From the NCBI RefSeq assembly GCF_029227855.1, contig NZ_CP074356.1: a stretch of DNA of 64,000 bases, one strand, 5' to 3'. Positions 1 to 32,818 of this stretch are shown in pieces. A model generated the notes under the pieces. The model was not told the DNA's origin, did not search any database, and saw only the letters and a list, made by a program, of their open reading frames with translations. The stretch's first letter is position 1. Every line of letters starts with the position of its first letter. The translations under genes and the position numbers were made by a program. The DNA comes from Escherichia coli (GTDB lineage: Bacteria > Pseudomonadota > Gammaproteobacteria > Enterobacterales > Enterobacteriaceae).

Positions 1-102
1 GACACTGCGCTGGATCGTCTGATGCAGGGTGCACCGGCACCGCTGGCTGCAGGTAACCCGGCATCTGATGCCGTTAACGATTTGCTGAACACACCAGTGT
101 AA
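1..102 (+). CDS. C: 3' end of lambda gpC/Nu3 (capsid protease/scaffold), truncated by the window edge
   Basis: Frame 1 is open from base 1 and ends ...DAVNDLLNTPV with TAA at 100-102, just upstream of D. The DNA matches my memory of lambda immediately before D. Confidence 0.75.
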   Translation, partial: DTALDRLMQGAPAPLAAGNPASDAVNDLLNTPV

Positions 103-111
103 GGGATGTTT

Positions 112-444
112 ATGACGAGCAAAGAAACCTTTACCCATTACCAGCCGCTGGGCAACAGTGACCCGGCTCATACCGCAACCGCGCCAGGCGGATTGAGTGC
201 GAAAGCGCCTGCAATGACCCCGCTGATGCTGGACACCTCCACCCGTAAGCTGGTTGCGTGGGATGGCACCACCGACGGTGCTGCTGTCGGCATTCTTGCT
301 GTTGCTGCTGACCAGACCAGCACCACGCTGACGTTCTACAAGTCCGGCACGTTCCGTTATGAGGATGTGCTCTGGCCGGAGGCTGCCAGCGACGAGACGA
401 AAAAACGGACCGCGTTTGCCGGAACGGCAATCAGCATCGTTTAA
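112..444 (+). CDS. D: Head decoration protein gpD
   Basis: [12 protein letters not shown]...FAGTAISIV is essentially the lambda gpD sequence (110 aa). The ATG at 112 is preferred over the ATG at 106 because lambda D starts MTSKE. Confidence 0.95.
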
Positions 445-465
445 CCTTACCCTTCATCACTAAAG

Positions 466-486
466 GCCGCCTGTGCGGCTTTTTTT
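466..486 (+). terminator. Small hairpin plus T-run between D and E, as in lambda
   Basis: GCCGC (466-470) pairs with GCGGC (475-479), followed by T7 at 480-486. Confidence 0.5.
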
Positions 487-499
487 ACGGGATTTTTTT

Positions 500-775
500 A
501 TGTCGATGTACACAACCGCCCAGCTGCTGGCGGCAAATGAGCAGAAATTTAAGTTTGATCCGCTGTTTCTGCGTCTCTTTTTCCGTGAGAGCTATCCCTT
601 CACCACGGAGAAAGTCTATCTCTCACAAATTCCGGGGCTGGTAAACATGGCGCTGTACGTTTCGCCGATTGTTTCCGGTGAGGTTATCCGCTCCCGTGGC
701 GGCTCCACCTCTGAATTTACGCCGGGATATGTCAAGCCGAAGCACTTAGCATGGCTTTCTGAGGCTTTCGTGTAG
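500..775 (+). pseudogene. E: Major capsid protein gpE, 5' fragment (codons 1-82) running into island DNA
   Basis: MSMYTTAQLLAANEQKFKFDPLFL...SEFTPGYVKPKH matches lambda gpE residues 1-82. After base 745 the frame reads LAWLSEAFV and stops at 773-775. The rest of E resumes at 11872. Confidence 0.93.
735..744 (+). repeat. Left copy of the 10-bp direct repeat AGCCGAAGCA (attL core)
   Basis: Identical 10-mer at 11864-11873. Both copies lie on the E codons for K-P-K-H. Confidence 0.8.
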
Positions 776-872
776 CTGCTGGTTTTTACACTTAATCTTT
801 TGATAATAAAGAATAAGTTTATCTGGCGCTTTCACTGAATTTTCCTCGTTATCTGTGTGTTGCAATCATCTC

Positions 873-893
873 TGTATTGCAGCTTGTATTGCT
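873..893 (+). repeat. Tandem TGTATTGC motif (TGTATTGCAGCTTGTATTGCT), candidate arm-type Int binding site, left arm
   Basis: A near-identical 21-mer (TGTATTGCAGCATGTATTGCT) lies in the same orientation at 11768-11788. A degenerate third copy, TGTGTTGCAA, lies at 857-866. Confidence 0.5.
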
Positions 894-907
894 TTTTGGG
901 GCTAAAA

Positions 908-2143
908 ATGGCTGGCGAGAACAAACTGAGCGACAAAGCGCTTAAAGGATATCTGGGGAAACCCAGAGAAAAGCAGATCACCATTGCTGATGGAAAGGGG
1001 CTTTCTATTCGTGTGAGTACTAAAGGGGCTGTGAGCTTTGTTTTCTTCTACAGGTTAGCAGGTGGCCGGGCTGCTCCGGTCTGGCTAACGTTGGGTAAAT
1101 ATCCTGATATGTCACTCAAACAGGCAAGGGAAAAGCGCGACGAGTGCCGTGGTTGGTTGGCTGACAAACGTGATCCGCGTATCCAGATTAAGATTCAGGC
1201 TGAAGAACGCTTAAAGCCGGTCACAGTGGAGGATGCACTAAATTACTGGTATGAAAATTACTGTAAGGTGCGTCGTAAAACTCATGCTGTAACGCTTGGC
1301 AGATTTCGAAAGCATATCTTTCCCTATATCGGTCATTTGCCCGTAAATGACACTCACCTATATGAATAGCTGGACTGTTTTGACCGAATTAAACGTAATG
1401 CACCAGTTATGGCGGCGTATGTTTTTTCTGACACTAAATTAGCTCTTCGTTTTTGTCGGGTACGCCAGTACGCGACGTGTGATGCTTTAAAGGATTTGCG
1501 CATGAGTGATGTGGGGCAGATTGCAGGTAAGCGGGATCGGGTTCTGGATGAGGTCGAACTCGGCCAGCTCTGGAAGGCAATTTTTGTCGAGCCTGATTTA
1601 AAACTAATGTCTGAATACACGCGAAAAATGTTTGTGCTTTGTACAGTATTTGGATGTCGAATGAGTGAAGCCCGATTATCAGAATGGAGCGAATGGGATC
1701 TCGAAAGTTGGGTTTGGACTGTGCCAAAAGATCACTCAAAAACTGGTGTTGAAATCGTCAGACCAGTACCTGAAATTCTACGACAGTGGGTAACGGATGT
1801 TCACGAAGAGACAAAACATACTGGTTATGTGCTGGGAAGTCTGCGAATTAGAGAAAGCGTAAGCAAGATTGGGGGGAAAATCGGTAAACGTTTGGGCCAT
1901 GAAAAACAATGGTCACTACACGACCTTAGAAGAACGCTATCTACTCATCTAAGTGATCTCGGTGTTGAATTTTATGTAGTAGAACAACTGTTAGGCCATG
2001 CGCTACCTGGCGTGGCAGGTGTTTACAACCGGAGTAAGTTTATGGCTAAAAAACTGGATGCTCTGGAACTCTGGACTACATATCTCAATAGCATCGCAGC
2101 TGCTGATTCAAAAGTGACAATCCTCAAACAAAAGGCTGGTTAG
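908..2143 (+). pseudogene. int: P4-family tyrosine integrase interrupted by one in-frame amber codon
   Basis: ORFs 857-1369 and 1409-2143 are in the same frame, separated only by TAG at 1367-1369 (context LYE*LDCFDRI; TGG/Trp would fit). The C-terminal part has HDLRRT, LLGH and GVYNRS catalytic-type motifs. The ATG at 908 gives MAGENKLSDKALK. Confidence 0.85.
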
Positions 2144-2144
2144 C

Positions 2145-2375
2145 ATGAAAAAAATGGCAATTGTTGATAAAAAGGGTCTGGAGTACATTCCTAACATTGA
2201 CCGAATGATCCGTGAGAAAGAATGTCGGGAGCTAACTACTCTTGCGAACAGCACACGCTGGAAGCTGGAGAAGGAAGGAAAATTTCCTAAGCGGATCAAG
2301 ATTGGTTCCACTGCTGTTGCATATCGTCTTTCAGAAGTGCAGGCATGGATTCGAGGTGAGTGGGAAACAACTTAA
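2145..2375 (+). CDS. alpA: AlpA-family HTH regulator/excisionase-like protein
   Basis: 76 aa. IREKECRELTTLANSTRWKLEKEGKFPKRIKIGSTAVAYRLSEVQAWI fits the AlpA pattern (G-FP-P-K-G ... W-x-x-EV-x-W). The ATG lies 1 nt after the int stop. Confidence 0.8.
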   Translation: MKKMAIVDKKGLEYIPNIDRMIREKECRELTTLANSTRWKLEKEGKFPKRIKIGSTAVAYRLSEVQAWIRGEWETT

Positions 2376-2382
2376 CTATTAG

Positions 2383-3213
2383 GTGGGCATTGTGGCTATA
2401 TTTCATTATACAGATCTTTTTGGTTTGAAAGGTATATTAGACTCTAATTCTTTATGGGCTACAAACATATATTTCTTAAATGATAAAGAGGAGTCTAACC
2501 ATGGATGTGAATGCTTTCGAAATACAATTAAAATAGTTGATGACAATATCATTCCAAAAGATAAGAAAACTATTTTGCTCAAGTCTCTTGACATGTATGA
2601 GAAAGGGAGGTTACAAAAAGAAAAAGGGATTGATAAACATGTTTATAGCATCTCTTTTTGTAAGGAAAACGATAAGTTAAGTCAGTGGAGAGGTTACGGA
2701 AATAAACAGGGTGTTTGCATTGAGTTTGATGCGGATGAACTTGTGAGCTTTTCTCAAAATATTTATTTAAATTGTGTTGCACATGATGTTATATATTCAA
2801 ATAATAACGATATTACTAAGATGAGTAAGGAGTTGGGAGAGTTTTTTTCTTGTAATGGTATTAATATTAAAGAAATGAATGATCATTTTGTAACAATGGT
2901 CTCTACGTATCAATTTATATCTAAATACATCCCATTTTTTAAACATCCTAGTTTTATCGAAGAGAATGAATTTAGATTGGTATTTACTCCGTGGATGCAA
3001 ATGCCAGATGTGCACTTCAGAATAAATAATAATGGGATCATCCCTTATATCATCATTGATAATAAAGATAATAGAAAGTTACCAATTAAAAGCATTACAA
3101 TTGGCCCGACAAACGATTATGATTTCATTGAGGCTGGTATAAAAATGTTCTTGGATTCAAGAGGATTTAGTTCTGTGGAAATTAAATCCTCATCAATTCC
3201 ATTCAGGGGGTAA
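2383..3213 (+). CDS. DUF2971-like protein (AT-rich cargo)
   Basis: 276 aa with a GTG start. Motifs FHYTD...GIL, FLNDKEE, SISFC...DKLSQWRGYG..GVCIEF and KHPSFIEENEFR resemble the DUF2971 signature. The gene is markedly AT-rich compared with its neighbours. Confidence 0.6.
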   Translation: MGIVAIFHYTDLFGLKGILDSNSLWATNIYFLNDKEESNHGCECFRNTIKIVDDNIIPKDKKTILLKSLDMYEKGRLQKEKGIDKHVYSISFCKENDKLSQWRGYGNKQGVCIEFDADELVSFSQNIYLNCVAHDVIYSNNNDITKMSKELGEFFSCNGINIKEMNDHFVTMVSTYQFISKYIPFFKHPSFIEENEFRLVFTPWMQMPDVHFRINNNGIIPYIIIDNKDNRKLPIKSITIGPTNDYDFIEAGIKMFLDSRGFSSVEIKSSSIPFRG

Positions 3214-3258
3214 GGATTAACACTTTTAATCTATGATATTATAAAAATGGTGGATAAA

Positions 3259-3278
3259 GGCGACCAGAATTGGTCGCC
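3259..3278. terminator. Hairpin between the convergent cargo genes
   Basis: GGCGACCA (3259-3266) pairs with TGGTCGCC (3271-3278). Confidence 0.4.
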
Positions 3279-3344
3279 AATGTGAGTATATAGTTAGCCT
3301 TAATCAGAATACGAGGTTATCGCCTGATAGGCAATGTGAACAGT

Positions 3345-3701
3345 TCAATATTTAGGTGGTTCAACAAGAGCGTTTATCATTGCTCTCAAATTATCGCGAA
3401 CACTTATCCAAGTCTGTTCTGCTCGTTCTAACTCATCAGTGTACAACTTTAATGTTTTATCTATGCCATATGTGGCTATTAAATTTATAGCTTCTTGTAA
3501 TTTTTCAGGATTATTCCTTCTTGGGGGAGTGAATATACCACGGATTTTTCCGGTAATTAAAGCTTTACGGTGTCTACATAGAATACCTTTACTTCCTGCT
3601 GGACAATTACAAGTCATGATTAGCGAGCCAGAATCGTTTGATACAGTGACTATGTATACATCCAAACTACTGCTACTTGTTGCGAAGAATTCGTATTTCA
3701 T
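3345..3701 (-). CDS. Small SWIM-type zinc-finger protein
   Basis: 118 aa. CNCPAGSKGILCRHRKAL fits the CxC...CxH SWIM motif. Convergent with the DUF2971-like gene. Confidence 0.6.
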   Translation of the reverse strand: MKYEFFATSSSSLDVYIVTVSNDSGSLIMTCNCPAGSKGILCRHRKALITGKIRGIFTPPRRNNPEKLQEAINLIATYGIDKTLKLYTDELERAEQTWISVRDNLRAMINALVEPPKY

Positions 3702-3728
3702 GTGTTAGCTCCTTGACTTCAATTATTC

Positions 3729-3920
3729 TTATCCTTTTGGTTCAATACCGCGCCGTAGCAGCTCTTTGCGCCCTAATTCTTTAAGCCAGTTGGCTAGGCT
3801 TATGCCGTCGCTCTGCGCTTCTTTGTCGAATTGCTCTTTTAGCTCTGGAGAAATTCGCATTCTGAATTGTGGAGATTGCCCATCACCCTTAGGACTTTTA
3901 TCGCGTTTGATCGTTGACAA
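3729..3920 (-). CDS. Arc/Mnt-like ribbon-helix-helix repressor candidate
   Basis: SPQFRMRISPELKEQFDKEAQSDGISLANWLKE resembles the Arc N-terminus (PQFNLRWPREVLDLV...). I prefer the TTG start at 3920, which is preceded by AGGTGG. The ATG at 4043 in the ORF track would add a low-complexity extension that overlaps the divergent leader. Confidence 0.55.
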   Translation of the reverse strand: MSTIKRDKSPKGDGQSPQFRMRISPELKEQFDKEAQSDGISLANWLKELGRKELLRRGIEPKG

Positions 3921-3965
3921 GTGACCACCTATTGAATTAGCCTTTTCATTGTTAGGTGACCACCT
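3921..3965. promoter_or_regulatory. Two direct copies of GTGACCACCT, candidate operators in the divergent control region
   Basis: Exact 10-mers at 3921-3930 and 3956-3965. The second copy lies within the palindrome AGGTGACCACCT. The first abuts the repressor start. Confidence 0.4.
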
Positions 3966-3991
3966 TAACACGGGGGCACTTAAAAAAGCAA

Positions 3992-4022
3992 AGCCCGAAG
4001 GTGCTGGGAACACCAACGGGCT
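3992..4022 (+). ncRNA. Structured hairpin in the leader of the early operon (possible C4/CI-like immunity RNA element)
   Basis: AGCCCG-AA-GGTG-CTGGGAA-CACC-AA-CGGGCT forms a two-tier stem with a symmetric AA/AA internal loop. It lies about 40 nt upstream of an icd-like gene, the position of c4 in P1 immI. Confidence 0.3.
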
Positions 4023-4059
4023 TCTAACCACCAACGATAGCAACAGTATCGAGGTAGCT

Positions 4060-4263
4060 ATGAGAAATCATACCACACACCCGCAAGGGCGGGACCCGCA
4101 CAACCTGAATAAATACATCTGGCGTTTTATCGCCTTGAGTACGGCACAACCGCGCATGATTACCATCGAGGCCATCAGCGAACAGGAAGCCCGCCAGCAA
4201 TCCCCAACTGGCTGCGTGATGGTATTCGCCGCCCGTATTCGTCAGGAGGTGTGCCGTGCTTAA
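4060..4263 (+). CDS. Icd-like (cell division inhibitor-like) small protein
   Basis: 67 aa. KYIWRFIALSTAQPRMITIEAISEQEARQQSP...FAARIRQEV matches my memory of Icd-like proteins from P4-type satellites. GAGGT lies 5 nt upstream of the ATG at 4060. Confidence 0.55.
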   Translation: MRNHTTHPQGRDPHNLNKYIWRFIALSTAQPRMITIEAISEQEARQQSPTGCVMVFAARIRQEVCRA

Positions 4264-4441
4264 AACCTTCCGTGTATTTGCCCGAGCTGTTAACCCACTG
4301 GGCCACACAATTGGTATCACTCAGAACGTGAAGGCTGTTAATGTTCAGACGGCTATTGCTGCGGTGAGAAGCGAATCATCAGAATATGGCTTATCACAAG
4401 TCATTATTTCAGCAGTGTATGAATTAAAAGAGGTGCATTAA
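4256..4441 (+). CDS. Hypothetical protein
   Basis: 61 aa with a GTG start overlapping the upstream stop. Part of a tightly packed same-strand operon. Confidence 0.45.
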   Translation: MLKTFRVFARAVNPLGHTIGITQNVKAVNVQTAIAAVRSESSEYGLSQVIISAVYELKEVH

Positions 4442-4632
4442 TGCAGGAAATCACATTACACGAAGCCGCTGAACGTGCGCACCAGACAGAAATTATTTGC
4501 CGCCTTCTTGAGGTATACCCGAACAAAATTACAGATGCTGATATATCCGCGCTGGCGAGCCTACTGGCGCGCCTTTCGGGAAGTGTCGCTAGTTTCCTGA
4601 TTGAGGAAGAAAGTAAGCTGGTGGGGGATTAA
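4441..4632 (+). CDS. Hypothetical protein
   Basis: 63 aa. TAATG overlap with the upstream gene suggests translational coupling. Confidence 0.5.
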   Translation: MQEITLHEAAERAHQTEIICRLLEVYPNKITDADISALASLLARLSGSVASFLIEEESKLVGD

Positions 4633-4854
4633 ATGAATACAGAACGGGAAGTCTTTTTTAAATTGTTAGCATGTGCAGAAAGTTCATTAACTTTAAATAA
4701 TTCAGCAAAAGCAATATTAAATATGTGGCTTGATTGCATAAATGACAATGAAGATGCAAATATTGCTTATGGCCTGTTGTCACTTATTGATGAATCAGCA
4801 GAAAAACTCAATGACGCAATAAATAGTGCCCTGCTATCAAATAAGTCGAGTTAA
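4633..4854 (+). CDS. Hypothetical protein (AT-rich)
   Basis: 73 aa. The ATG directly follows the upstream TAA. Confidence 0.5.
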   Translation: MNTEREVFFKLLACAESSLTLNNSAKAILNMWLDCINDNEDANIAYGLLSLIDESAEKLNDAINSALLSNKSS

Positions 4855-4871
4855 GTCGAGGAATAAATAAT

Positions 4872-5171
4872 ATGGAAATGAAAAATTCTGGCTTTATTGC
4901 CAGCGGCCCCGCTCGGCCTGAATTTATGAACGGCGATATTTACCGCGATAAATACGGCGGCACGGTAACGATTAAAGGCGTGGCAGAACGGCGCATCACT
5001 TACCGCCGTGAGGGGTATAGCTATGACTGCGTGATGCCTGTTTATCAGTTCCGGCGTGATTTTTCCCTGGTATATGCCGCACCCCGCAGTAAGCCCATCA
5101 GCAGGGAAAAAGCGCGGGGAAACATCCAGAAAATGAAAAGCATGATTAACGCATTCAGGGGCAAAAAATGA
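4872..5171 (+). CDS. Hypothetical protein
   Basis: 99 aa. ATGA overlap with the primase-helicase gene. Confidence 0.55.
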   Translation: MEMKNSGFIASGPARPEFMNGDIYRDKYGGTVTIKGVAERRITYRREGYSYDCVMPVYQFRRDFSLVYAAPRSKPISREKARGNIQKMKSMINAFRGKK

Positions 5172-6919
5172 AACTGGCACCGAACTTAAAAAAACAGCCA
5201 CGCGACAGACTGACAGAGGTAATCATCTTTGCAGGTAGTGATGCGTGGAGCCATGCGAAAGAGTGGCGGGAATGGGCGGGTAAACATATTGCCGCCGACG
5301 ATGTGCCGCCTGTCGTGCTGGCTGATGAGCAACTGAAAAATATCACCGATTACCGGATCATTGATGAAGATCGTCAGTGTGTGCGTGTTTACCGCGCAGG
5401 ACATATCACAGAGCACAGCATGACGCAGATTGTTACGTTACTGGCTGTGGCTGGAGTGAAGACCGTACACGAATACGCGGGGATTACTGACACCAGCCCA
5501 GTGGATTTATCCGAGCAGTTGCCGCGACTCAAAGAGGAATGCGAGCGTGGGGAAAGTCTGGTGCTTAATCTTCCGACGAAGCAAAAGGCGCAACTTTCAC
5601 AGATGGCAGACAGTGAACGTGCACAACTACTTGCCGATCGCTTTGATGGTGTGTGTGTTCATGCAGAAAGTGAAATCGTCCACGTATGGCGCGGCGGGGT
5701 ATGGTGTCCGGTCAGCACAATGGAGCTGAGCCGCGAAATGGTGGCGATCTATTCAGAGCACAGGGCCACGTTCAGCAAACGTGTAATCAATAACGCCGTG
5801 GAAGCGTTAAAAGTTATTGCCGACCCCATGGGGGAGCCGTCCGGTGATTTGCTACCGTTCACTAATGGTGTGCTTAACCTGAAAACGGGGGAATTTTCTC
5901 CGCACTCGCCGGAGCACTGGAGCACCACGCACAATGGCATTGAGTACACGCCACCAGTAGCAGGGGAAAACATCCGCGATAATGCGCCAAATTTCCATAA
6001 ATGGCTTGAACATGCTGCAAGAAAAGACCCGCGCAAGATGATGCGTATATGTGCCGCGTTATACATGATTATGGCGAACCGCTACGACTGGCAGATGTTC
6101 ATTGAGGCCACCGGAGACGGGGGAAGCGGTAAGAGTACATTTACCCATATTGCCACCCTGCTTGCTGGCAAACAGAACACCGTAAGCGCGGAGATGACAT
6201 CACTCGATGATGCAGGAGGGCGCGCGCAGGTTGTCGGGAGTCGTCTTATCGTCCTTGCCGATCAGCCGAAATATACGGGGGAAGGCACGGGCATCAAGAA
6301 AATCACGGGAGGCGATCCCGTTGAAATTAACCCGAAATATGAGAAGCGATTCACGACGATAATAAGGGCGGTGGTACTGGCAACCAATAACGACCCGATG
6401 ATCTTTACCGAACGGGCCGGAGGTGTGTCACGCCGTCGGGTGATTTTCCGGTTCGACAACATTGTAAGGGAGGACGAAAAAGACAAGGAATTACCGGAAA
6501 AGATAGCGGCAGAAATCCCCGTAATTATCCGCCGCTTGCTGGCTAATTTTGCTGACCCTGAAAAGGCACGGGCTTTATTACTGGAACAGCGTGACGGTGA
6601 TGAAGCTCTGGCAATAAAGCAGCAAACGGATCCGGTTGTTGAGCTTTGCGCGGCGCTGGAGTTTCTGGAGGAAGCTCGTGGGCTAATGATGGGCGGTGGT
6701 GGTGACACCGTGAAGTACACGACCAGAAACAGCCTTTACCGTGTCTATATGGCCTTCATGGCATACACAGGAAAGGGGAAATGTTTGAGCGTGAATGAGT
6801 TCGGAAAGGCTATGAGGTCAGCGGCGAAAGTTTACGGATATGAATATATTACGCGAAAAGTTAAGGGAGTCACGCAGACCAACGCAACGACTACTGATGA
6901 TTGCGATGCGTTTTTATAA
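5168..6919 (+). CDS. P4/D5-family primase-helicase (replication initiator, pri-rep type)
   Basis: 583 aa. FHKWLEHAARKD...YDWQMFIEATGDGGSGKSTF fits the phage/plasmid primase P4-family C-terminal NTPase with a Walker A motif. An iteron field lies immediately downstream. Confidence 0.8.
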   Translation: MKLAPNLKKQPRDRLTEVIIFAGSDAWSHAKEWREWAGKHIAADDVPPVVLADEQLKNITDYRIIDEDRQCVRVYRAGHITEHSMTQIVTLLAVAGVKTVHEYAGITDTSPVDLSEQLPRLKEECERGESLVLNLPTKQKAQLSQMADSERAQLLADRFDGVCVHAESEIVHVWRGGVWCPVSTMELSREMVAIYSEHRATFSKRVINNAVEALKVIADPMGEPSGDLLPFTNGVLNLKTGEFSPHSPEHWSTTHNGIEYTPPVAGENIRDNAPNFHKWLEHAARKDPRKMMRICAALYMIMANRYDWQMFIEATGDGGSGKSTFTHIATLLAGKQNTVSAEMTSLDDAGGRAQVVGSRLIVLADQPKYTGEGTGIKKITGGDPVEINPKYEKRFTTIIRAVVLATNNDPMIFTERAGGVSRRRVIFRFDNIVREDEKDKELPEKIAAEIPVIIRRLLANFADPEKARALLLEQRDGDEALAIKQQTDPVVELCAALEFLEEARGLMMGGGGDTVKYTTRNSLYRVYMAFMAYTGKGKCLSVNEFGKAMRSAAKVYGYEYITRKVKGVTQTNATTTDDCDAFL

Positions 6920-6932
6920 AAAATGGCAATGG

Positions 6933-7161
6933 TTATCTACCTTGTCTACCTGACTGAAAGAAAATACTTTTATTTCAATGTATTAATGCAGGTAGATAAC
7001 TATTTTTCACTGTCTACCTGTTATCTACCTTATCTACCCATTTTTGTAGACAGGTAAGGAGACGGGTAGAGATGAGGTAGACAGCTATTTGGGGCTGTCT
7101 ACCTCCCTGAAACCCGCGCCATTACTGGCCTGATAACTAATCAGGTAGACAAGGTAGACAA
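6933..7161. repeat. Iteron field, candidate satellite origin of replication
   Basis: At least 10 copies of GGTAGA(C/T)A or its complement, in both orientations: 6933-6941, 6942-6950, 6991-6999, 7011-7018, 7021-7029, 7030-7038, 7077-7085, 7095-7103, 7144-7152, 7153-7161. AT-rich spacers lie around 6955-6990. Confidence 0.75.
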
Positions 7162-7208
7162 GGTGGTGGTGCACAAAAAACTTTTTAAACGAGGGGGTAA
7201 AAATAAAA

Positions 7209-7466
7209 ATGCACACTTCAGGAAAACTGAACAAACATATAAAGCCACATTACCGCGCCCTTGATATGGCTGAACACTGGCTAAGGGTGGCGATTAAGGC
7301 AATAGACCGCAACGCCGGGGAAGGATACGCGAAAGCACATCCCGAACTGATAAGCGCATTCATGACAACGGCGGCTGCAAACTTTGCCACGCTGACCGAA
7401 CGGGAGATTGCTGAAGCGGAGGAAGTGACAACAATCAATATTAAGTCCGGAGAGCAGGCAGCATGA
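7209..7466 (+). CDS. Hypothetical protein
   Basis: 85 aa. ATGA overlap with the SSB gene. Confidence 0.5.
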   Translation: MHTSGKLNKHIKPHYRALDMAEHWLRVAIKAIDRNAGEGYAKAHPELISAFMTTAAANFATLTEREIAEAEEVTTINIKSGEQAA

Positions 7467-7912
7467 CGGCGCAAATATCAGTTTACGGGCGGTTGGTGGA
7501 CGACCCGCAGACAAAACAGACCAGCAAGGGCACCCCCATGACGCTGGCGCGTATGGCGGTATCACTGCCCTGCAGTCAGTCGGATGACGGTCTGGCGACG
7601 TTGTGGTTATCTGTCCTGGCGTTTGGCAGACAAGCCGACGCGCTGGCAAAGCATCACAAAGGCGAACTCCTGAGCGTGGCGGGTAACATGCAGATGAGCC
7701 AGTGGACTGGACAGAACGGCGAAACGCGGCAGGGCTGGCAGGTTATCGCAGACAGCGTAATCAGTGCGCGATCGGTGCGACCGGGCGGCAAAAAAGGCCA
7801 ACAGGGGCAGGCTACTGACGCACTGAACAGAGCAAAACAACAGGCAGATCAGCAAGGAAGCCAGCCACCAGAGGGAGATAATGAGCAATGGGGAGATGAT
7901 ATCCCGTTTTAA
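7463..7912 (+). CDS. ssb: Single-stranded DNA-binding protein (SSB family)
   Basis: 149 aa. OB-fold-type N-terminus (VYGRLVDDPQTKQT...WLSVLAFGRQAD...KGELLSVAGNMQMSQW), a Gln/Gly-rich linker, and the canonical acidic tip DDIPF. Confidence 0.8.
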   Translation: MTAQISVYGRLVDDPQTKQTSKGTPMTLARMAVSLPCSQSDDGLATLWLSVLAFGRQADALAKHHKGELLSVAGNMQMSQWTGQNGETRQGWQVIADSVISARSVRPGGKKGQQGQATDALNRAKQQADQQGSQPPEGDNEQWGDDIPF

Positions 7913-7923
7913 ATATTGCCAAT

Positions 7924-7954
7924 AAAAAAAGCCGGAAAAAATAAATTTTCCGGC
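7924..7954 (-). terminator. Hairpin with its T-run only on the minus strand, between the replication and capsid modules
   Basis: GCCGGAAAA (7931-7939) pairs with TTTTCCGGC (7946-7954). A7 at 7924-7930 gives a U-tract only for leftward transcription. Confidence 0.4.
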
Positions 7955-8128
7955 ATGCTACATAAATCCCGACCAAAGGGAGTGAAGATATTAACACTAA
8001 TTGTCCGCACTGAAGTTGTCACACCAAAACTTTATACAACATTGCACTCGGTTGCATGTGTTCGCATGACAAATATCGGTGATAGCATATATCCACAATT
8101 ATTTTTAATGAATGCAAAGAGGATGCGT

Positions 8129-9169
8129 ATGGTTGATTTATATTCGCCTACTCAGCTTGTACAGGTAGTTAATGCTGTAGATGTACAAAAACAACTAAAT
8201 GCGTTGTTTACCAGTTTGTTTTTTACTCGCTCGGTAATGTTTGAATCGCGCGATATTATTCTTGATACAATCGACGATCCAAATATCCCAATTGCAGCGT
8301 TTTGTTCTCCTATGGTGGGTAGTAAAGTTTCACGTGACGAAGGGTACGAATCAAAAACAATTCGTCCAGGCTATATGAAGCCGAAAAGCAGCATTGATCC
8401 AAATAAGTTAGCTGTGCGCCCTGCTGGTGTGTCACCTGAGCAATACAATGCTTTTGGGGCGCGTAATATTAAAGTTAAACAGGCGATTGTAAATCAGGCT
8501 AAAGCTATTCGTGCACGTATTGAATGGCTTGCTGTTCAGGCAATCACAACGGGGAAAAATATCATTGAGGGCGATGGTATTGAACGTTATGAGCTGGACT
8601 GGAATATAAAACCACAAAATATCATCACTCAGTCTGGCGGTACTGAGTGGTCAGGTAAGGATAAAGAAACTTTTGATCCAAATGATGATATTGAGAGCTA
8701 CGCAGAATTTAGTGAGGGCGTCACTAATATCATCATTATGGGTGGTAATGTATGGAAGAAATACCGTTCATTCAGAGCGATAAAAGAGGCTTTGGATACC
8801 CGTCGTGGTTCTAATTCCGAACTGGAAACGGCCCTTAAAGACCTTGGTGATTCGGTGAGTTTTAAAGGGTATATGGGCGATGTTGCGATTGTTGTTTACA
8901 GCGGGCGTTATACCGACGAGGACGGAACAGAAAAACATTTCCTTGATCCTGATTTGATGGTGCTTGGCAATACGGCTCTTCAGGGGATTGTCGCCTATGG
9001 CGGTATTCAGGATCCGGAGCTAATCCGAATGGGGCTGACTAAAGCCGAACTTGCACCGAAAAACTATATTGTGCCTGGTGATCCGGCTATTGAATATGTG
9101 CAGACACATTCAGCACCACAGCCAATACCGGCCCGCATCAATCGTTTTGTTACCGTTCGCATTGGCTAA
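8129..9169 (+). CDS. Satellite-encoded major capsid protein, gpE (lambda E) family
   Basis: 346 aa. The C-terminal half aligns by eye with lambda gpE: ITQSGGTEWSGKDKETFDPNDDIESYA, LDTRRGSNSELETALKDLG, YMGDVAIVVYSGRY, MVLGNTA, PGDPA. The N-terminal half is much more diverged. The ATG at 8129 has AAGAGGA 6 nt upstream. The longer ORF from 7916 has no homology support. Confidence 0.88.
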   Translation: MVDLYSPTQLVQVVNAVDVQKQLNALFTSLFFTRSVMFESRDIILDTIDDPNIPIAAFCSPMVGSKVSRDEGYESKTIRPGYMKPKSSIDPNKLAVRPAGVSPEQYNAFGARNIKVKQAIVNQAKAIRARIEWLAVQAITTGKNIIEGDGIERYELDWNIKPQNIITQSGGTEWSGKDKETFDPNDDIESYAEFSEGVTNIIIMGGNVWKKYRSFRAIKEALDTRRGSNSELETALKDLGDSVSFKGYMGDVAIVVYSGRYTDEDGTEKHFLDPDLMVLGNTALQGIVAYGGIQDPELIRMGLTKAELAPKNYIVPGDPAIEYVQTHSAPQPIPARINRFVTVRIG

Positions 9170-9178
9170 GGGGGAGCA

Positions 9179-9520
9179 ATGGCTACTCATTACACTGAAC
9201 TCATGGCTGGCACTGAAGCACTGGTGACTACGCTGGGGATATTTTCAGCTAATAAAGGGGTAATTCCTGCATTTACGCCACTGATGCAGGAAGATGCAAC
9301 AGGTGCACTGGTGGTATGGGATGGTTCGAGCGTAGGTAAAGCGGTTTATGTTTCCGCTGTACAAATCGACACCGCGAAAAAAACACAGGCTCAGGTCTAT
9401 AAGACAGGTGTCTTAAATGTTGATGCTCTGAACTGGCCTGAGTCTGTTAAAGAACTGTCAGTAAAGGTTGCAGCGTTTGTTGGCTCAGGTATTTCTGTTC
9501 AGCCGCTGGCTCGTGTGTAA
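9179..9520 (+). CDS. Satellite-encoded head decoration protein, gpD family
   Basis: 113 aa. Shares TPLM, LVxWDG, YKxG, LxWPE and AFxGxGIS with lambda gpD in the same order. Confidence 0.75.
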   Translation: MATHYTELMAGTEALVTTLGIFSANKGVIPAFTPLMQEDATGALVVWDGSSVGKAVYVSAVQIDTAKKTQAQVYKTGVLNVDALNWPESVKELSVKVAAFVGSGISVQPLARV

Positions 9521-9531
9521 AGGGGGATACA

Positions 9532-9915
9532 ATGCAGAATGATTACAATGACCTTAAGCCAATTGCCGAAATGATGTACCCGAATCAAGCTGTAGAGGAA
9601 TTAAAAGCTATCGCTGACAAAATGTGTTTAAGCGAGCGCCTTGTTGATATGAATCAGGTGATGGAAATTACAACCCTGAGTCGTCGTACACTGCTAAACC
9701 TTGAGGCTAGTGGAGAGTTCCCGGAGCGTGTGCAGGTTACGGAAGGGCGTAAGGCCTGGTATTTAAGTGAAGTGATCGACTGGATAAATAATATTCCTCG
9801 CGCTTCTGAATATTGCCGCGTACCTGTCCCAAAAAAGCCAGATGCGGCGCTATGCCTCAAGATTGAGCGTGTACGCCGCAATGCACGGGATGGTCGCTAT
9901 AAGCTGATTGGTTGA
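9532..9915 (+). CDS. AlpA/MerR-like winged-HTH protein immediately upstream of cos
   Basis: 127 aa. MNQVMEITTLSRRTLLNLEASGEFPERVQVTEGRKAWYLSEVIDWI fits the AlpA pattern. It is the last gene before the cos site. Confidence 0.65.
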   Translation: MQNDYNDLKPIAEMMYPNQAVEELKAIADKMCLSERLVDMNQVMEITTLSRRTLLNLEASGEFPERVQVTEGRKAWYLSEVIDWINNIPRASEYCRVPVPKKPDAALCLKIERVRRNARDGRYKLIG

Positions 9916-9922
9916 TGAAATT

Positions 9923-9948
9923 AGGACCCGCTCTGGCTGGCGGGTCCT
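9923..9948 (+). terminator. Hairpin after the capsid module
   Basis: AGGACCCGC (9923-9931) pairs with GCGGGTCCT (9940-9948), followed by TTCC (a weak T-run). Confidence 0.45.
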
Positions 9949-9954
9949 TTCCGG

Positions 9955-10140
9955 CGATCCAGAACGTTACGGGGCGTCAGGCGCGCAGTTTTTCGCTATT
10001 TGTGAAAATTTTCCTGTTTAAGGCGTTTCCGTTCTTCTTCGCCGTAACTTAATGTTTTTATTAAAAACACCCCCTAAAAAGAAAGGAAACGACAGGTGCT
10101 AAAAACAGGCTTTTTGGCCTCTGTCGTTTCCTTTCTCTGG
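9955..10140 (+). other. cos: Lambda-type cos site (cosN plus cosB R3-I1-R2-R1) with no adjacent terminase genes
   Basis: CGTTACG|GGGCGTCAGGCG|CGCAGTTTTTCGCTATTTGTGAAAATTTTCCTGTTTAAGGCGTTTCCGTTCTTCTTCG...GAAAGGAAACGACAGGTGCT...GGCTTTTTGGCCTCTGTCGTTTCCTTTCTCTG is collinear with my memory of the first ~180 bp of lambda. The R-site repeats CGTTTCC lie at about 10023-10034, 10081-10095 (inverted) and 10121-10135. The predicted 12-nt end at 9972-9983 matches lambda GGGCGGCGACCT at 7 of 12 positions. Confidence 0.85.
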
Positions 10141-10479
10141 TTTTGTTGCCATCCGTCGCGGTCTATCACCAGAAAAAATCTTATCCCTGAGTTGAATCAG
10201 GCCCTATTCAGAAGCGGCCAATAACGCGCCGCTAGCTTCACTTCATAGTTATGGCCTACTTCTGCGCCATTGCAATTGCTTTATGCGCCTTGATGGTGGA
10301 ATATAGAGCAAGCAGTTTGCGAATAACAAAGTTTCATATGTTTTTTGCTGTGTGGCTAGACAACTTTACAGCAGAGTTTTGTGTCAGTTCTTTATGTGTG
10401 CAAGCAAGCTTGAGGGGGAATTACTTCTGGCTGTATCTTTGCTTAAGAACAGCAATAATTTAATCATAAGGAAATGTAT

Positions 10480-10506
10480 ATAAGCCTGATTAAATTTCAG
10501 GCTTAT
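10480..10506 (-). terminator. Hairpin just downstream of the TIR gene
   Basis: ATAAGCCTGA (10480-10489) pairs with TCAGGCTTAT (10497-10506), 8 nt past the stop of the minus-strand gene. Confidence 0.5.
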
Positions 10507-10513
10507 TGAAATG

Positions 10514-11656
10514 TTAACTCCTTATTAGAGAGTAAATTCCATCCTCTTTAAGGAAGTCTATTACTTCAAAGAATGAGATAAAGAATTCCCAAGAACCAAA
10601 AGCATATGCATGAATTTCGTAAGGTGCAAAATGGAATCTAAATCCATCACTATTTATTGTGAACGAGTCTAAGTTACTATCCATGATACCCGTTGCAAAC
10701 GTACTAATGTCGTCCTCACTTGGTTTTTCACCAGTTTTCTCCCAAAATTCACGAGCTGATTCAGAGATTATTTTTTGTTTTATCTTATTAATCGCTTCTT
10801 GCTCTTTCCCTTCGGTAAATACATCCCATAAACTAAATTTGTATGCGTAGTCATCCTTGGTTATTACGAAATTACTAGTTTCAAAATGACTGTTAGGGTG
10901 TGCTGCTCCCGCACCATACCAATGTACGGAATGAAGGATGCTCATGACATTTTCGTTACAGTATGAGATGTTATAACTTTCATTATAGGAACTAGTGTAA
11001 GTGTGTTTATATTCTTCATCCCAATATGGTGTTCCTGGCCATAGTGATGTGCGTTCAGAAAAAATATGTAAAGCCGCTTTTCCTGAAAAGTAATCACTAA
11101 TGAGTTTTGCTGATTTCGGTAATGTATGGCTTTCAATTCTTGGATATGCTATTTCAATTTCATGCCCTGGGATCTTGTTATATTCTTCCTTGAAAACCTC
11201 GCTGCTAAAGTTAAATGGCCCATAAGTGATACCTTGAGATATTTCAAGTTTTTGTTGCGATGCTGCTAATCTTAAAGATCTAGATAAAATGTCCCAACCA
11301 TCATTTCTCTTAAAATCAATGAATTGGAGCTTGCTTGATATGTAGGCGGGTACTTCGCAATCATCAATAAGTAATGGTATCACGAACACATCATCTGGTT
11401 TGTAATACTTTAGTTTATCAATGGCGTCATTTATTTCGCGGCGAATATAACCATTTTTCTGAGTGCTCACTTTGCTAAGGATAAGGATTATCAAGTTTGA
11501 ATTAGCGAAGTTTTTTTGGATTTCATAATCCCAGTTTACGCCAGCGGGTATATCTTTTACATCCATCCAAGGGGAATATCCTCCACTTTTTAGCCTTTCA
11601 TAGATTTCTTCAGTTATCGTTTCATCTTCTTTTGCATGAGCAAGAAAAATTTTCAT
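10514..11656 (-). CDS. TIR-domain protein fused to a DUF4163/DUF3298 (RsiV-like) C-terminal domain
   Basis: 380 aa with no signal peptide or TM segment visible. The N-terminus (MKIFLAHAKEDE...GYSPWMDVKDIPAGVNWDYEI...SNLIILILSKVSTQKNGYIRREINDAI) fits the TIR_2 pattern, including the conserved Glu position. The C-terminus has IEIAYPRI... and HWYGAGAAHPNSHFETSNF...FSLWDVF, resembling the DUF4163 and DUF3298 motifs. AT-rich. Confidence 0.7.
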   Translation of the reverse strand: MKIFLAHAKEDETITEEIYERLKSGGYSPWMDVKDIPAGVNWDYEIQKNFANSNLIILILSKVSTQKNGYIRREINDAIDKLKYYKPDDVFVIPLLIDDCEVPAYISSKLQFIDFKRNDGWDILSRSLRLAASQQKLEISQGITYGPFNFSSEVFKEEYNKIPGHEIEIAYPRIESHTLPKSAKLISDYFSGKAALHIFSERTSLWPGTPYWDEEYKHTYTSSYNESYNISYCNENVMSILHSVHWYGAGAAHPNSHFETSNFVITKDDYAYKFSLWDVFTEGKEQEAINKIKQKIISESAREFWEKTGEKPSEDDISTFATGIMDSNLDSFTINSDGFRFHFAPYEIHAYAFGSWEFFISFFEVIDFLKEDGIYSLIRS

Positions 11657-11767
11657 TGAATATTCCTTTATAATTTAACTAATTAAGTGAAGGAGGCTTT
11701 ACTTGGCTGTGTTAGAAAAAATTCGGTTTGTTTTTTGTACGATGCCAAGAAGGCTTTTCCCTAACCA

Positions 11768-11788
11768 TGTATTGCAGCATGTATTGCT
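11768..11788 (+). repeat. Tandem TGTATTGC motif (TGTATTGCAGCATGTATTGCT), candidate arm-type Int site, right arm
   Basis: Matches 873-893 at 20 of 21 positions, in the same orientation. Confidence 0.5.
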
Positions 11789-11863
11789 ACGTAATTCTGC
11801 ACCCTCTCATTTATAAAATAAATCTCTGTTAAATCAAGTATCTTTTTTCTATTTGACTCATGT

Positions 11864-11873
11864 AGCCGAAGCA
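11864..11873 (+). repeat. Right copy of the 10-bp direct repeat AGCCGAAGCA (attR core)
   Basis: Identical to 735-744. Followed by TGAGGTGAATCCGCAG, the continuation of lambda E (H-E-V-N-P-Q). Confidence 0.8.
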
Positions 11874-12699
11874 TGAGGTGAATCCGCAGATGACCCTGCG
11901 TCGCCTGCCGGATGAAGATCCGCAGAATCTGGCGGACCCGGCTTACCGCCGCCGTCGCATCATTATGCAGAACATGCGTGACGAAGAGCTGGCCATTGCC
12001 CAGGTCGAAGAGATGCAGGCAGTTTCTGCCGTGCTTAAGGGCAAATACACCATGACCGGTGAAGCCTTCGATCCGGTTGAGGTGGATATGGGCCGCAGTG
12101 AGGCGAATAACATCACGCAGTCCGGCGGCACGGAGTGGAGCAAGCGTGACAAGTCCACGTATGACCCGACCGACGATATCGAAGCCTACGCGCTGAACGC
12201 CAGCGGAGTGGTGAATATCATCGTGTTTGATCCGAAAGGCTGGGCGCTGTTCCGTTCCTTCAAAGCCGTCAAGGAGAAGCTGGATACTCGTCGCGGCTCT
12301 CATTCCGAGCTGGAGACAGCGGTGAAAGACCTGGGCAAAGCGGTGTCCTACAAGGGGATGTATGGCGATGTGGCCATCGTCGTGTATTCCGGACAGTACG
12401 TGGAAAACGGCGTCAAAAAGAACTTCCTGCCGGACAACACGATGGTGCTGGGGAACACTCAGGCACGCGGTCTGCGCACCTATGGCTGCATTCAGGATGC
12501 GGACGCACAGCGCGAAGGCATTAACTCCTCTGCCCGTTACCCGAAAAACTGGGTGACCACCGGCGATCCGGCGCGTGAGTTCACCATGATTCAGTCAGCA
12601 CCGCTGATGCTGCTGGCTGACCCTGATGAGTTCGTGTCCGTACAACTGGCGCAATCGTGGCCCTTCGGGGCCATTTTCTCTCTGTGGAGGAGTCCATGA
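11872..12699 (+). pseudogene. E: Major capsid protein gpE, 3' fragment (codons 82-341), with loss of the normal stop
   Basis: HEVNPQMTLRRLPDEDPQNLADPAYRRRR...DPDEFVSVQLA matches lambda gpE 82-341. The expected TAA is CAA (12652-12654), so the frame runs 15 more codons (QSWPFGAIFSLWRSP) to TGA at 12697-12699. Confidence 0.93.
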
Positions 12700-13091
12700 C
12701 GAAAGATGAACTGATTGTCCGTCTCCGGTCGCTGGGTGAGCAACTGAACCGTGATGTCAGCCTGACGGGGACGAAAGAAGAACTGGCGCTCCGTGTGGCA
12801 GAGCTGGAAGAGGAGCTTGATGACACGGATGACGCTGCCGGTCAGGATACCCCTCTCAGACCGGAAAATGCGCTGACCGGACATGAAAATGAGGTGGTAT
12901 CAGAGCAGCCGGATACCATGATTGATACGGCTGCTCTGGTCACGGTCGTGGCACTGGTGACGCTGCATACTGATGCACTTCACGCCACGCGGGATGAACC
13001 TGTGGCATTTGTGCTGCCGGGAACGGCGTTTCGTGTCTCTGTCGGTGTGGCAGCCGAAATGACAGAACGTGGCCTGGCCAGAATGCAATAA
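12696..13091 (+). CDS. FI: DNA-packaging/head-completion protein FI
   Basis: MTKDELIVRLRSLGEQLNRDVSLTGTKEELALRVAELEEEL...MTERGLARMQ is close to lambda gpFI. Confidence 0.92.
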   Translation: MTKDELIVRLRSLGEQLNRDVSLTGTKEELALRVAELEEELDDTDDAAGQDTPLRPENALTGHENEVVSEQPDTMIDTAALVTVVALVTLHTDALHATRDEPVAFVLPGTAFRVSVGVAAEMTERGLARMQ

Positions 13092-29459: not shown

Positions 29460-30791
29460 TTATTTTGAGTGAATTATCACCTTGTTTTTTCCGGTTCTTT
29501 TGGCTTGATATAACGCTTTGTCGGCATTGACTAACATTTCAGATGGACTGAGATTATTCTCTTTTGAAGCAAAGCAACCAATACTGACAGTTATTTTCTC
29601 AGGTCCATGCGATAATAATTTTTCCGAGCATTGCTCTTCAATGTTTTTTCTGATTCGCTCTGCAATTGATAGCAAGAGTTTTTGAGTATTACCTTTAATG
29701 ATAATACCGAACTCCTCACCGCCTAAGCGCCCTAATATATCCTCTTTCCTGATGGATTTTTTTATTATTCTGGTAACCATTACTATGACTTGATCACCCA
29801 TATGATGCCCCCATTTGTCATTGATGCTTTTGAAACTGTCAATATCTAACATTATTACTGAGAAATCATGGTGTTTTGATATATTCTTCAATGAGTCAAT
29901 AAAGTATCTTCTATTGTATGTATTCGTTAGTGGATCATGAATTGCCATATGATTAGCATGATTTAATTTCCTGAAAACATAATACATGAGTGTTGAAATG
30001 ATATAAATCATTGATATCAATTCAAGAAATTTTGTCATGTACCATGCAGGATGGGATTTATCAATAAAATACAATAAAATTAGATTATTGCATACTGACA
30101 CTATACTAATAAGTATTATACACAACCATATTTTTGAGTAATTACGTATGCTGATGCATGAGCTGATAAGTAATACAAGCCAAAATACTGATATTATTTT
30201 GGTGTACACGATATTCCACGTCGACAAATGACGATTCAGCGAGTATTGTATAATATTAAGACTATATTTTATATGGTCACTGCTTAGATTTTTTGCTACA
30301 AACGGAGTAATAAAAAGAATTAATATTGACAAAACAACAATTATTATGTTTCTTTTATCTTCTAAAATACTTTTATTTTTAACATTGGTGGAATAAACAG
30401 CCAGAAAGATTATAGATATAAAGCTGAACTGACGGAATAGATAATATATTGCGATATCATTTGATTTCTGATAGATTGTAGATAAATCGTTACCTAACGG
30501 AGATAAAGAAATAATAGCCACTTCTAATAAATAATACGTGTTGCTCAAAAACGCGAATGAAAGAATTAAGAGATAACTTTGTCTCTGATTAGAAACATAG
30601 TAAAGCAATAGAAAAATAAAAATCATCAGGTTTATGAAAAAAAGCCCAATAATGAAAACACTATAACTTATTTGTGTTGTTTGTGTTATGTATATTCCAT
30701 TATTTTCATGCAGTAACAAAAATATAATAGAGATGCATGAAAATAAAAAGATGAAGATTTTTATTTTTATAGGTACCTGGTTGATAATCAT
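29460..30791 (-). CDS. Membrane-bound GGDEF diguanylate cyclase (AT-rich prophage-end cargo)
   Basis: 443 aa. About 8 TM segments, then HDPLTNTYNRRYF...DIDSFKSINDKWGHHMGDQV...GRLGGEEFGIII...ADKALYQAKRTGKNKV (intact GGEEF). Very AT-rich. Confidence 0.85.
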   Translation of the reverse strand: MIINQVPIKIKIFIFLFSCISIIFLLLHENNGIYITQTTQISYSVFIIGLFFINLMIFIFLLLYYVSNQRQSYLLILSFAFLSNTYYLLEVAIISLSPLGNDLSTIYQKSNDIAIYYLFRQFSFISIIFLAVYSTNVKNKSILEDKRNIIIVVLSILILFITPFVAKNLSSDHIKYSLNIIQYSLNRHLSTWNIVYTKIISVFWLVLLISSCISIRNYSKIWLCIILISIVSVCNNLILLYFIDKSHPAWYMTKFLELISMIYIISTLMYYVFRKLNHANHMAIHDPLTNTYNRRYFIDSLKNISKHHDFSVIMLDIDSFKSINDKWGHHMGDQVIVMVTRIIKKSIRKEDILGRLGGEEFGIIIKGNTQKLLLSIAERIRKNIEEQCSEKLLSHGPEKITVSIGCFASKENNLSPSEMLVNADKALYQAKRTGKNKVIIHSK

Positions 30792-31050
30792 GTACGCACC
30801 TGAGAATGATATATATATAATATGTATCGCTACAAATAACGATAATTTCTTACTGGTGATAGTATACTATTATTCTGGTTAATCGCTGTCAAATTGATGA
30901 TTTTGGTTAGTATTGCAATAGCGAAGGGTTTGATCCGGTAAGACTGGCTAGGCAAGGCTATACCAAAAAATCAGTGTAGGTTCAGAAAACGATGCACCAT
31001 ACAATCATCAATAATTTCAAATTGTCCATTGTGCATAAATCATAAAGAAA

Positions 31051-31085
31051 ACCGCAGCACGTCGTATGCAAGAACGTGCTGCGGT
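31051..31085 (-). terminator. 12-bp perfect-stem hairpin with a T-rich tail on the minus strand
   Basis: ACCGCAGCACGT (31051-31062) pairs with ACGTGCTGCGGT (31074-31085). On the minus strand it is followed by TTTCTTTATGAT. No obvious upstream gene. Confidence 0.35.
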
Positions 31086-31383
31086 TGGCTGGTGAGCTTT
31101 CGATAGTGCGAGTATTGAATGATTTCCAGACGTTACCGATTTTATATAACTGCAGTGGAATTATTCAACACACAGGCAAAACGGAATAAGCTGAGAAAAA
31201 AGCGTGCTTTCCCAATCTGGGGCAAATCACGTCTGAATGACACCTGAAAACAGGTGGTAGCCTCAAGAAGGCTTGGAATATTCTTCTTTAATGTTATGTA
31301 ATTCATTGATTTTTCTTGTACGATTTTAAGACATTTATTCCAAGAAAAATTTTTAACTCTTTGATTTTTCGACTCTGTATCAT

Positions 31384-31445
31384 CGGTCTCGAAAACCGGA
31401 GTAGGGGCAACTCTACCGGGGGTTCAAATCCCCCTCTCTCCGCCA
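31384..31445 (+). tRNA. serU: 3' 62-nt fragment of tRNA-Ser (serU-like), probable prophage attR core and not a functional tRNA
   Basis: CGGTCTCGAAAACCGGAGTAGGGGCAACTCTACCGGGGGTTCAAATCCCCCTCTCTCCGCCA covers the anticodon-stem 3' side, the long variable arm, the T-arm and the acceptor 3' end with CCA. The 5' half (GGAGAGATGCCGGAGCGG...) is absent. Confidence 0.8.
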
Positions 31446-31993: not shown

Positions 31994-32027
31994 TAAAAAA
32001 GACACGTCTCAAGCATGAGCGTGTCTG
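31994..32027 (-). terminator. Rho-independent terminator downstream of zinT
   Basis: AGACACG (32000-32006) pairs with CGTGTCT (32020-32026). A6 at 31995-32000 gives a U-tract on the minus strand. Confidence 0.65.
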
Positions 32028-32114
32028 AGTTTGTCTTATTTATTTGTCTTGGTAAATTATTGTCGTTACTACCAGGCACTGTTCTGTTAAATAATTGAAG
32101 TCAGCGCAAAAAAA

Positions 32115-32765: not shown

Positions 32766-32801
32766 AACAGTTTCCTCCAGAGTTAATGTATATGATATGT
32801 A

Positions 32802-32818
32802 ATGTTATATTGTAACAT
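32802..32818. promoter_or_regulatory. Zur box in the zinT promoter
   Basis: The palindrome ATGTTA-TATTG-TAACAT lies about 40 bp upstream of the zinT start. zinT is a known Zur regulon member. Confidence 0.65.

Follow-up and report, generated by a model that had tools for sequence, protein, structure and literature searches.

The repeat field at 6934-7160, together with flanks reaching to ~7189, is very probably the vegetative replication origin of a PICI of the EcCICFT073 type, carried by the 64-kb stretch of Escherichia coli DNA analyzed here (hereafter the window, to which unmarked positions refer). Three lines of comparison support this reading: the homology of the module to the tested one of EcCICFT073, the selective conservation of the iterons, and the co-inheritance of the iteron type with the helicase/DNA-binding cassette of the initiator. 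On these grounds we uphold the original prediction, which placed a candidate ori directly 3' of a PICI initiator gene. Features of this kind were known before and had been tested in the nearest homologue, and the type of island has likewise been published. No new principle is involved: how E. coli PICI origins are laid out and what the homologue does have been in print since 2018, and the embedded configuration since 2023. Narrowing the island origin to ~230 bp and recognizing that the island is of the helper-embedded PICI type (HE-PICI) are useful for annotation and for predicting compatible Rep alleles. The exchange of cassettes with four iteron types, the tracking of specificity with the wing of the winged helix, and the division of the field into ori-like and crr-like halves, all described below, are incremental, and could guide experiments on origin specificity and incompatibility in satellites.

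The octamer GGTAGAYA has 13 exact matches on the two strands of the 64-kb window, 10 of which fall within 6934-7160, and dinucleotide-preserving shuffles of the window gave a mean of 1.64 matches (sd 1.28), with 13 or more in none of 100 shuffles. Two further copies inside the field, each with one mismatch (TGTAGACA at 7045 and GGTAGAGA at 7065), bring the total to 12 sites, which bears out the earlier count of at least ten copies of GGTAGA(C/T)A within 230 bp. All 11 copies of the core hexamer (GGTAGA/TCTACC) in 1-13000 lie inside the field, and the densest 300-bp stretch outside the field in the whole window contains 3. When aligned, the 12 sites give the extended consensus a-GGTAGAYA-r; their orientations read --+---+++-++ and their centre-to-centre spacings are 9, 48, 20, 11, 9, 14, 20, 11, 20, 48, and 9 bp. 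Tandem copies were correctly recognized at the outset, as there are three pairs with a 9-bp spacing (6934/6943, 7022/7031, and 7144/7153), and the outer two pairs mirror each other as inverted repeats, with arms of 21 nt that are 95% complementary.

The field occupies the intergenic region 6920-7208, between a 583-aa ORF (rep, 5168-6919) and an 85-aa ORF (7209-7466). With rep ending at 6919 and the first iteron beginning at 6934, the two are 14 nt apart, exactly as first reported. The left tandem pair (6934-6950), which consists of GGTAGATA and GGTAGACA on the minus strand, is found at the same place in EcCICFT073, in Nissle, and in other genera. It is followed by an AT-rich 40-bp spacer (6951-6990), a candidate DNA-unwinding site with counterparts in the P4 ori and in other alleles. 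The iterons flanking this spacer point apart, with 2 sites to its left and 10 to its right. Its nearest-neighbour dG is -44.0 (element mean, -52.5), which places it among the least stable 4% of the 40-bp windows of the island, yet not at the minimum. The central-left iteron block (6991-7038) comprises sites at 6991-6998 (+), 7011-7018 (-), 7022-7029 (-), and 7031-7038 (-), and the central-right block (7045-7103) comprises the degenerate copy at 7045-7052 (+), the other one-mismatch copy at 7065-7072 (+), and sites at 7076-7083 (+) and 7096-7103 (-), an order that is kept in relatives.

A second 40-bp spacer (7104-7143) separates the last reverse iteron from the right tandem pair. AT-rich spacers had been noted between the repeats, which is true of 6951-6990 (23% GC) but not of 7104-7143 (50% GC). 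The latter contains a conserved 23-nt GC-rich block outside the iterons, CTGAAACCCGCGCCATTACTGGC (7107-7129), which is kept in E. coli, Raoultella, and Symbiopectobacterium loci while the adjacent spacer bases diverge; no match of the block to a known binding-site consensus was found. A conserved hairpin in this GC-rich spacer was considered and rejected, as consensus folding of 10 loci paired only the iteron arms, with no covariation. The right tandem pair (7144-7160, plus strand) consists of two copies of GGTAGACA. The right edge of the field is formed by the A/T tract AAAAAACTTTTTAAA (7175-7189), past which lies the ribosome-binding site of the downstream gene; AAAACTTTT at this edge is kept across genera and is also found at the end of both crr units of P4.

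A scan of 6700-7400 predicted neither a promoter nor a terminator, and patterns for DnaA boxes, IHF, Fis-like sites, and GATC gave no match in 6900-7230, so that boxes of this kind for host initiators are not part of the field. No RNA family was detected by Rfam over 1-13000 at E ≤ 0.1. These results fit an initiator-only origin through which transcription from upstream passes. Two small ORFs within the field (6923-7057, plus strand; 7085-7234, minus strand) were dismissed as spurious: they overlap the repeats and are annotated in no relative.

The most direct support comes from EcCICFT073. Fillol-Salom et al. (2018, PMC6092414) found that a clone carrying its pri-rep-ori module keeps a temperature-sensitive plasmid at the restrictive temperature. 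The rep mutant of this clone gave no colonies, and deletion of ori gave significantly fewer colonies (PMC6092414). The cloning experiment that had been proposed for the window fragment has thus already been carried out on its homologue (PMC6092414). The deletion primer from that paper matches the start of the spacer in our locus L005, the CFT073 island, which identifies the L005 gene as the pri of the paper. Its product, the 584-aa Pri-Rep of EcCICFT073, is 80% identical to the Rep of the window, the N-terminal module being only 44% identical. Both islands have DUF4222, rep, the field, the 85-aa gene, SSB, capsid, and decoration genes in the same order. Both fields are built on the GGTAGA core, with all 11-12 sites at the same position and in the same orientation, and both have the AT-rich spacer and the conserved GC-rich block, although the spacer bases differ. 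When the spacers of the window, Nissle 1917, and EcCICFT073 were aligned, all iterons were in register, and the mean column identity of this three-sequence alignment was 90%. The two islands differ in location: EcCICFT073 sits between roxA and phoQ, whereas the window island lies inside a prophage capsid gene.

Rep (583 aa, 5168-6919, plus strand) was identified as an SF3 helicase-initiator by Pfam, NCBIfam, PDB, and BLASTP searches. It can be divided into an N-terminal module (residues 1 to ~136), a D5_N/DUF5906 helicase (residues 137-486) with the Walker A motif GDGGSGKST, and a winged helix (residues 487-578). Pfam gave D5_N, DUF5906, and a weak C-terminal match to Pox_D5, and the NCBIfam model "P4 family primase C-terminal" scored slightly under its cut-off. 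Residues 219-441 match the helicase structure of the SaPI5 PriRep (7OLA, E 5e-15), and residues 487-578 match the origin-binding winged helix of the P4 alpha protein (PDB 1KA8, E 2e-7). By BLASTP, residues 137-578 of Rep align to residues 321-762 of alpha with 41% identity, and nothing in Rep aligns to alpha residues 1-320. Pfam detects both Zn_Ribbon_Prim and Toprim in alpha but neither domain in any of the PICI proteins, among them the Rep of the window. Because the match to alpha is limited to the helicase and the origin-binding domain, and because the Zn-ribbon and Toprim domains are missing, Rep is, as judged from its sequence, a helicase-initiator without a recognizable primase domain. 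The gene had been called a primase-helicase; the helicase half of this name holds, and the primase half does not.

Over its first ~100 residues, the N-terminal module of Rep shares 60% identity with the start of an unrelated helicase of the AAA_25/RepA type, which occupies the same slot in an island of O157:H7 (L003, 7352-8749), and the module (5168 to ~5470) remains in the island backbone when the helicase-ori cassette is exchanged. The sole Pfam match to the module at E ≤ 5 was a weak one to DUF4332. Matches of the module to designed repeat proteins in a phmmer search of the PDB were rejected as spurious, and a single-sequence AlphaFold model was unusable (mean pLDDT, 40.6).

Conservation within the field is concentrated in the iterons. 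In alignments of 5 E. coli spacers and of 9 spacers from several genera, the columns of the iteron hexamers are 87% identical to the window, and the remaining field columns are 47-49% identical. The orientation string of the window field is also found in Xenorhabdus and Symbiopectobacterium loci. A megablast search of 5426 complete E. coli genomes matched the region in 199, in all cases on the chromosome; the identity is ≥99% in 75 of these.

The iteron is specific to the Rep allele. On otherwise homologous backbones there are four cassette types with four iterons: GGTAGAYA with the Rep of the window, GGTGAACA with an SF3 allele of 604-606 aa in the same slot, and AAAGTGAGG or AAAGTGGGG with the RepA-type alleles. 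Outside about 5461-7255 (the left limit lies at about 5272-5461), the window shares 97-99% identity with L010, and within this segment there is almost no nucleotide homology; the homology of the window with other alleles resumes at 7245-7282. Because homology between the window and L010 is missing just there, the helicase, the origin-binding domain, and the field move as one block. In a wider sample of 80 loci, taken from contigs of one genome per species, 59 were scored, and 36 of the 59 had one of ten core hexamers present 5 or more times within 350 bp downstream of the rep homologue; these hexamers were mostly GGT-NN-ACA variants. About 25 homologues from Xenorhabdus, Photorhabdus, and related bacteria (L039-L071), whose ORFs are mostly ~800 aa and in some cases cut by contig ends, showed no clear iteron cluster within 350 nt downstream. 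In a Pantoea stewartii locus (L081, 4360-4456), the ORF is 802 aa long and is followed by the left, ori-like half (--+---) alone.

Natural chimeras suggest which part of Rep sets the iteron type. L076 and L077 combine an L010-like helicase (72%) with a wing segment of the GGTAGA class, and have GGTAGA iterons. Rep C-termini and the 350 nt downstream were also compared between L032 and L079 on one side and L010, L026, and L030 on the other: in L032 and L079 the helicase shares 91-93% identity with that of L010, which is of the GGTGAACA class, the wing has a 5-aa insertion, and the iterons are GGTAGACA. This insertion looks like a natural specificity switch as far as sequence can tell. Judging from these two sets of loci, the iteron type follows the winged-helix domain, in the segment aligned to residues ~561-575 of the window Rep.

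The comparison with P4, for which we relied on the GenBank annotation of NC_001609, cuts both ways. In that record, crr lies directly downstream of alpha and ori is ~4.5 kb off, with type-1 repeats in both. The position of the window field is therefore that of the P4 crr, which is required in cis in P4 and is not the initiation site, and this counts against the origin reading. The earlier statement that PICI/SaPI and P4 origins alike are iteron arrays beside the initiator gene accordingly stands for SaPI/PICI and fails for P4, where the array beside alpha is crr. The iterons of the two elements share the format GGT-NN-ACA but differ at positions 4 and 5: the P4 iteron is GGTGAACA, and the type-1 iteron TGTTCACC, to which alpha binds, is replaced by GGTAGAYA in the window, the P4 octamer being found in the PICI alleles L010 and L011. 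P4 has two clusters, ori and crr, ~4.5 kb apart, with the crr unit duplicated, whereas the island has a single contiguous field, and alpha carries the Zn-ribbon and Toprim domains of a DnaG-type primase at its N-terminus, whereas the Rep of the window has neither.

The L010 allele bridges the two arrangements. Positions 13-115 of its spacer, which contain two iterons, an AT-rich spacer, and then one plus three iterons, are collinear with the P4 ori (73% over 109 nt, E 1e-8), and positions 186-241, which contain the last reverse iteron, a spacer, and a tandem pair, align to each of the P4 crr units (E 3e-8 and 2e-5). In the window itself, the first six sites (--+---) reproduce the orientation string of the P4 ori, including the AT-rich spacer, and the right end, consisting of a reverse iteron, CTGAAA, a tandem pair, and an A/T tract, resembles a P4 crr unit; the right tandem pair of the window is collinear, via the L010 allele, with the pair that ends each crr unit. 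From this layout and the one bridging allele, the PICI field seems to combine a half resembling the P4 ori with an end resembling crr.

Could the field then be a crr-like enhancer only, bound by Rep in cis, with initiation at a separate ori elsewhere in the island or prophage? Its place directly downstream of rep and the alignment of the right end of the L010 field to each crr unit speak for such a role. The left half of the field, however, has the six-iteron order and AT-rich spacer of the P4 ori, to which the L010 allele aligns. Because there is no second GGTAGA cluster in 1-13000, and because the homologous pri-rep-ori fragment of EcCICFT073 sufficed for plasmid maintenance, we regard a crr-only role as very unlikely.

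A larger reading of the same likeness, taken as a whole, is possible but rather doubtful: the PICI field would be a compact ancestral ori plus crr, the split in P4 would be derived, and the N-terminal module of Rep would recruit host factors. The left half (two iterons, the AT-rich spacer, and one plus three iterons) would then be the ori proper, and the right end (an iteron, CTGAAA with the 23-bp GC-rich block, the tandem pair, and the A/T tract) would be a separately required cis element of the crr type. The ~100-aa N-terminal module, common to unrelated PICI helicases of the RepA type, would recruit host priming or loading factors, and the separated ori and crr of P4 would have arisen by rearrangement of an ancestral single field.

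Iteron-binding plasmid initiators often autoregulate. The repeats might accordingly be mainly operator sites, through which Rep or another island regulator controls the downstream SSB, capsid, and late genes; the field does lie between rep and the downstream operon, and with neither a terminator nor a promoter predicted there, a bound protein could modulate read-through. Yet the sites are downstream of rep and not at its promoter, their layout around an AT-rich spacer matches that of known origins, deletion of ori in the EcCICFT073 homologue lowered plasmid maintenance, and the iterons accompany the cassette of helicase and origin-binding domain rather than the genes downstream. We consider this explanation highly improbable. 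The least credible proposal is that the field is a packaging (cos or pac) site or a decayed, non-functional relic: terminase-binding sites can be short repeats and the integrase of the window island is broken, but a search of the window for lambda cosN found none, the repeats differ between Rep alleles whereas the side of the island with capsid and terS is constant, the core hexamers are kept across genera, and the region is present at ≥99% identity in the 75 E. coli genomes mentioned above. Operator-only and packaging roles are both disfavored because they leave unexplained why the repeats travel with the helicase cassette.

As an origin, the field fits the model described for the SaPIs. According to Qiao et al. 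(2022, PMC9371898) and work cited there, the SaPI origin lies directly 3' of rep, and its 6-12 short iterons form two oppositely oriented sets with an AT-rich region between them. At least two iterons lie on each side of this region, Rep is SF3-like with a C-terminal winged helix, and the iterons are Rep-specific (PMC9371898). The window field likewise lies directly 3' of rep and has opposed iteron sets, with 6934 (-) and 6943 (-), the 23%-GC spacer, and then 6991 (+) and nine further sites. The helicase core of the SaPI protein is detectably homologous to that of the window Rep, as the match to 7OLA indicates. The systems differ in that SaPIs belong to another host phylum, have iterons of 5-6 nt with unrelated sequences, and have divergent island transcription. 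Unlike in SaPI, the AT-rich spacer is off-centre in the window field.

The mechanism that we propose for the window follows the SaPI self-loading model, and from it we infer iteron binding by Rep, a melting site, loading of a double hexamer, and priming by the host. Once the rightward operon of the island is on, Rep would bind the 12 a-GGTAGAYA-r sites through its C-terminal winged helix and would load itself as an SF3 hexameric helicase on either side of the AT-rich spacer 6951-6990. The hexamers would then open this spacer, leading to theta-type replication. Because Rep has no primase domain, priming and synthesis would have to be supplied by host enzymes (priming perhaps by another partner), and SSB would come from the island.

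The island spans ~11.1 kb (735-11873, plus strand) and is bounded by the 10-bp repeat AGCCGAAGCA at 735-744 and 11864-11873. It splits a lambda-E-like capsid gene of the prophage (parts at 500-744 and ~11874-12699) at ...VKPKH|EVNPQ... and is co-oriented with that gene; D lies upstream of the split gene, and FI, tape-measure, and J genes lie downstream. The island is annotated in the same split-capsid setting in a relative, H1. The int frame (~909-2143) is followed by alpA (2145-2375; Pfam E 3e-15) and by an accessory zone with a DUF2971 protein (2383-3213, plus strand) and a SWIM zinc-finger protein (3345-3701, minus strand). In H1, this zone instead holds another hypothetical protein and a HicB antitoxin. 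DUF4222 (4872-5171) precedes rep, and the field is followed by the 85-aa protein (7209-7466, plus strand; phrog_1231) and SSB (7463-7912, plus strand), both of which are present whatever the Rep allele, and then by the capsid gene of the island itself (7916-9169) and a decoration gene (9179-9520). Just past the latter lies a gene for a second AlpA-family protein (9532-9915, plus strand; Pfam E 7.5e-9; phrog "excisionase and transcriptional regulator"). At the right end, a 380-aa protein with TIR_2 and DUF3298 is encoded on the opposite strand (10514-11656, minus strand). In strain RM14723, which has a near-identical island, an abortive-infection family protein occupies the slot of the TIR_2 protein, and this slot looks like a variable site for anti-phage cargo.

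In annotated relatives the gene order is int, alpA, Icd-like, small genes, DUF4222, "primase", spacer, hypothetical, SSB, major capsid, and decoration, which is the organization of Gram-negative PICIs such as EcCICFT073. The rightward transcription of int, alpA, and rep and the length of the island also agree with Gram-negative PICIs (10-20 kb). A search of a phage database with 6600-7500 gave no match, consistent with a satellite rather than a phage. By its gene content and location in the sequence, the island is an EcCICFT073-type PICI in the helper-embedded configuration (HE-PICI), of the 11capE type. Eco567.11capE was described as an 11-kb HE-PICI with its own capsid gene, a "primase", and an ori (Tommasini, Mageeney and Williams, 2023, PMC10111431). 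Like the window island, which we compared with the published description of Eco567.11capE, it is a PICI that interrupts a lambda-E-like capsid gene in the same orientation and has a 10-bp identity block at att.

The integrase sets the window island apart from Eco567.11capE. The window Int aligns full-length to that of EcCICFT073, with an in-frame TAG (1367-1369) in place of a Trp codon, and the gene is probably a recent pseudogene, judging from the reading frame. In H1, a 99%-identical relative, the integrase is annotated as frameshifted. The in-frame TAG makes excision of the window island doubtful. Autonomous replication of the excised island, which had been predicted, is hence supported as far as an iteron-type PICI origin is concerned, but its excision is in doubt, given the integrase TAG and the location inside a prophage; the island may be decaying, and this strain may not use the origin on an excised circle.

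The surrounding prophages differ as well. Beyond the tail genes of the window prophage, 29460-43242 encodes a MASE4-GGDEF diguanylate cyclase, a two-component sensor kinase, a porin, and a Dcm-type cytosine methylase. The helper prophage of 11capE is located at icd, whereas the prophage in the window is followed by the diguanylate cyclase, porin, and methylase genes, and because of these chromosomal genes it is apparently not at icd.
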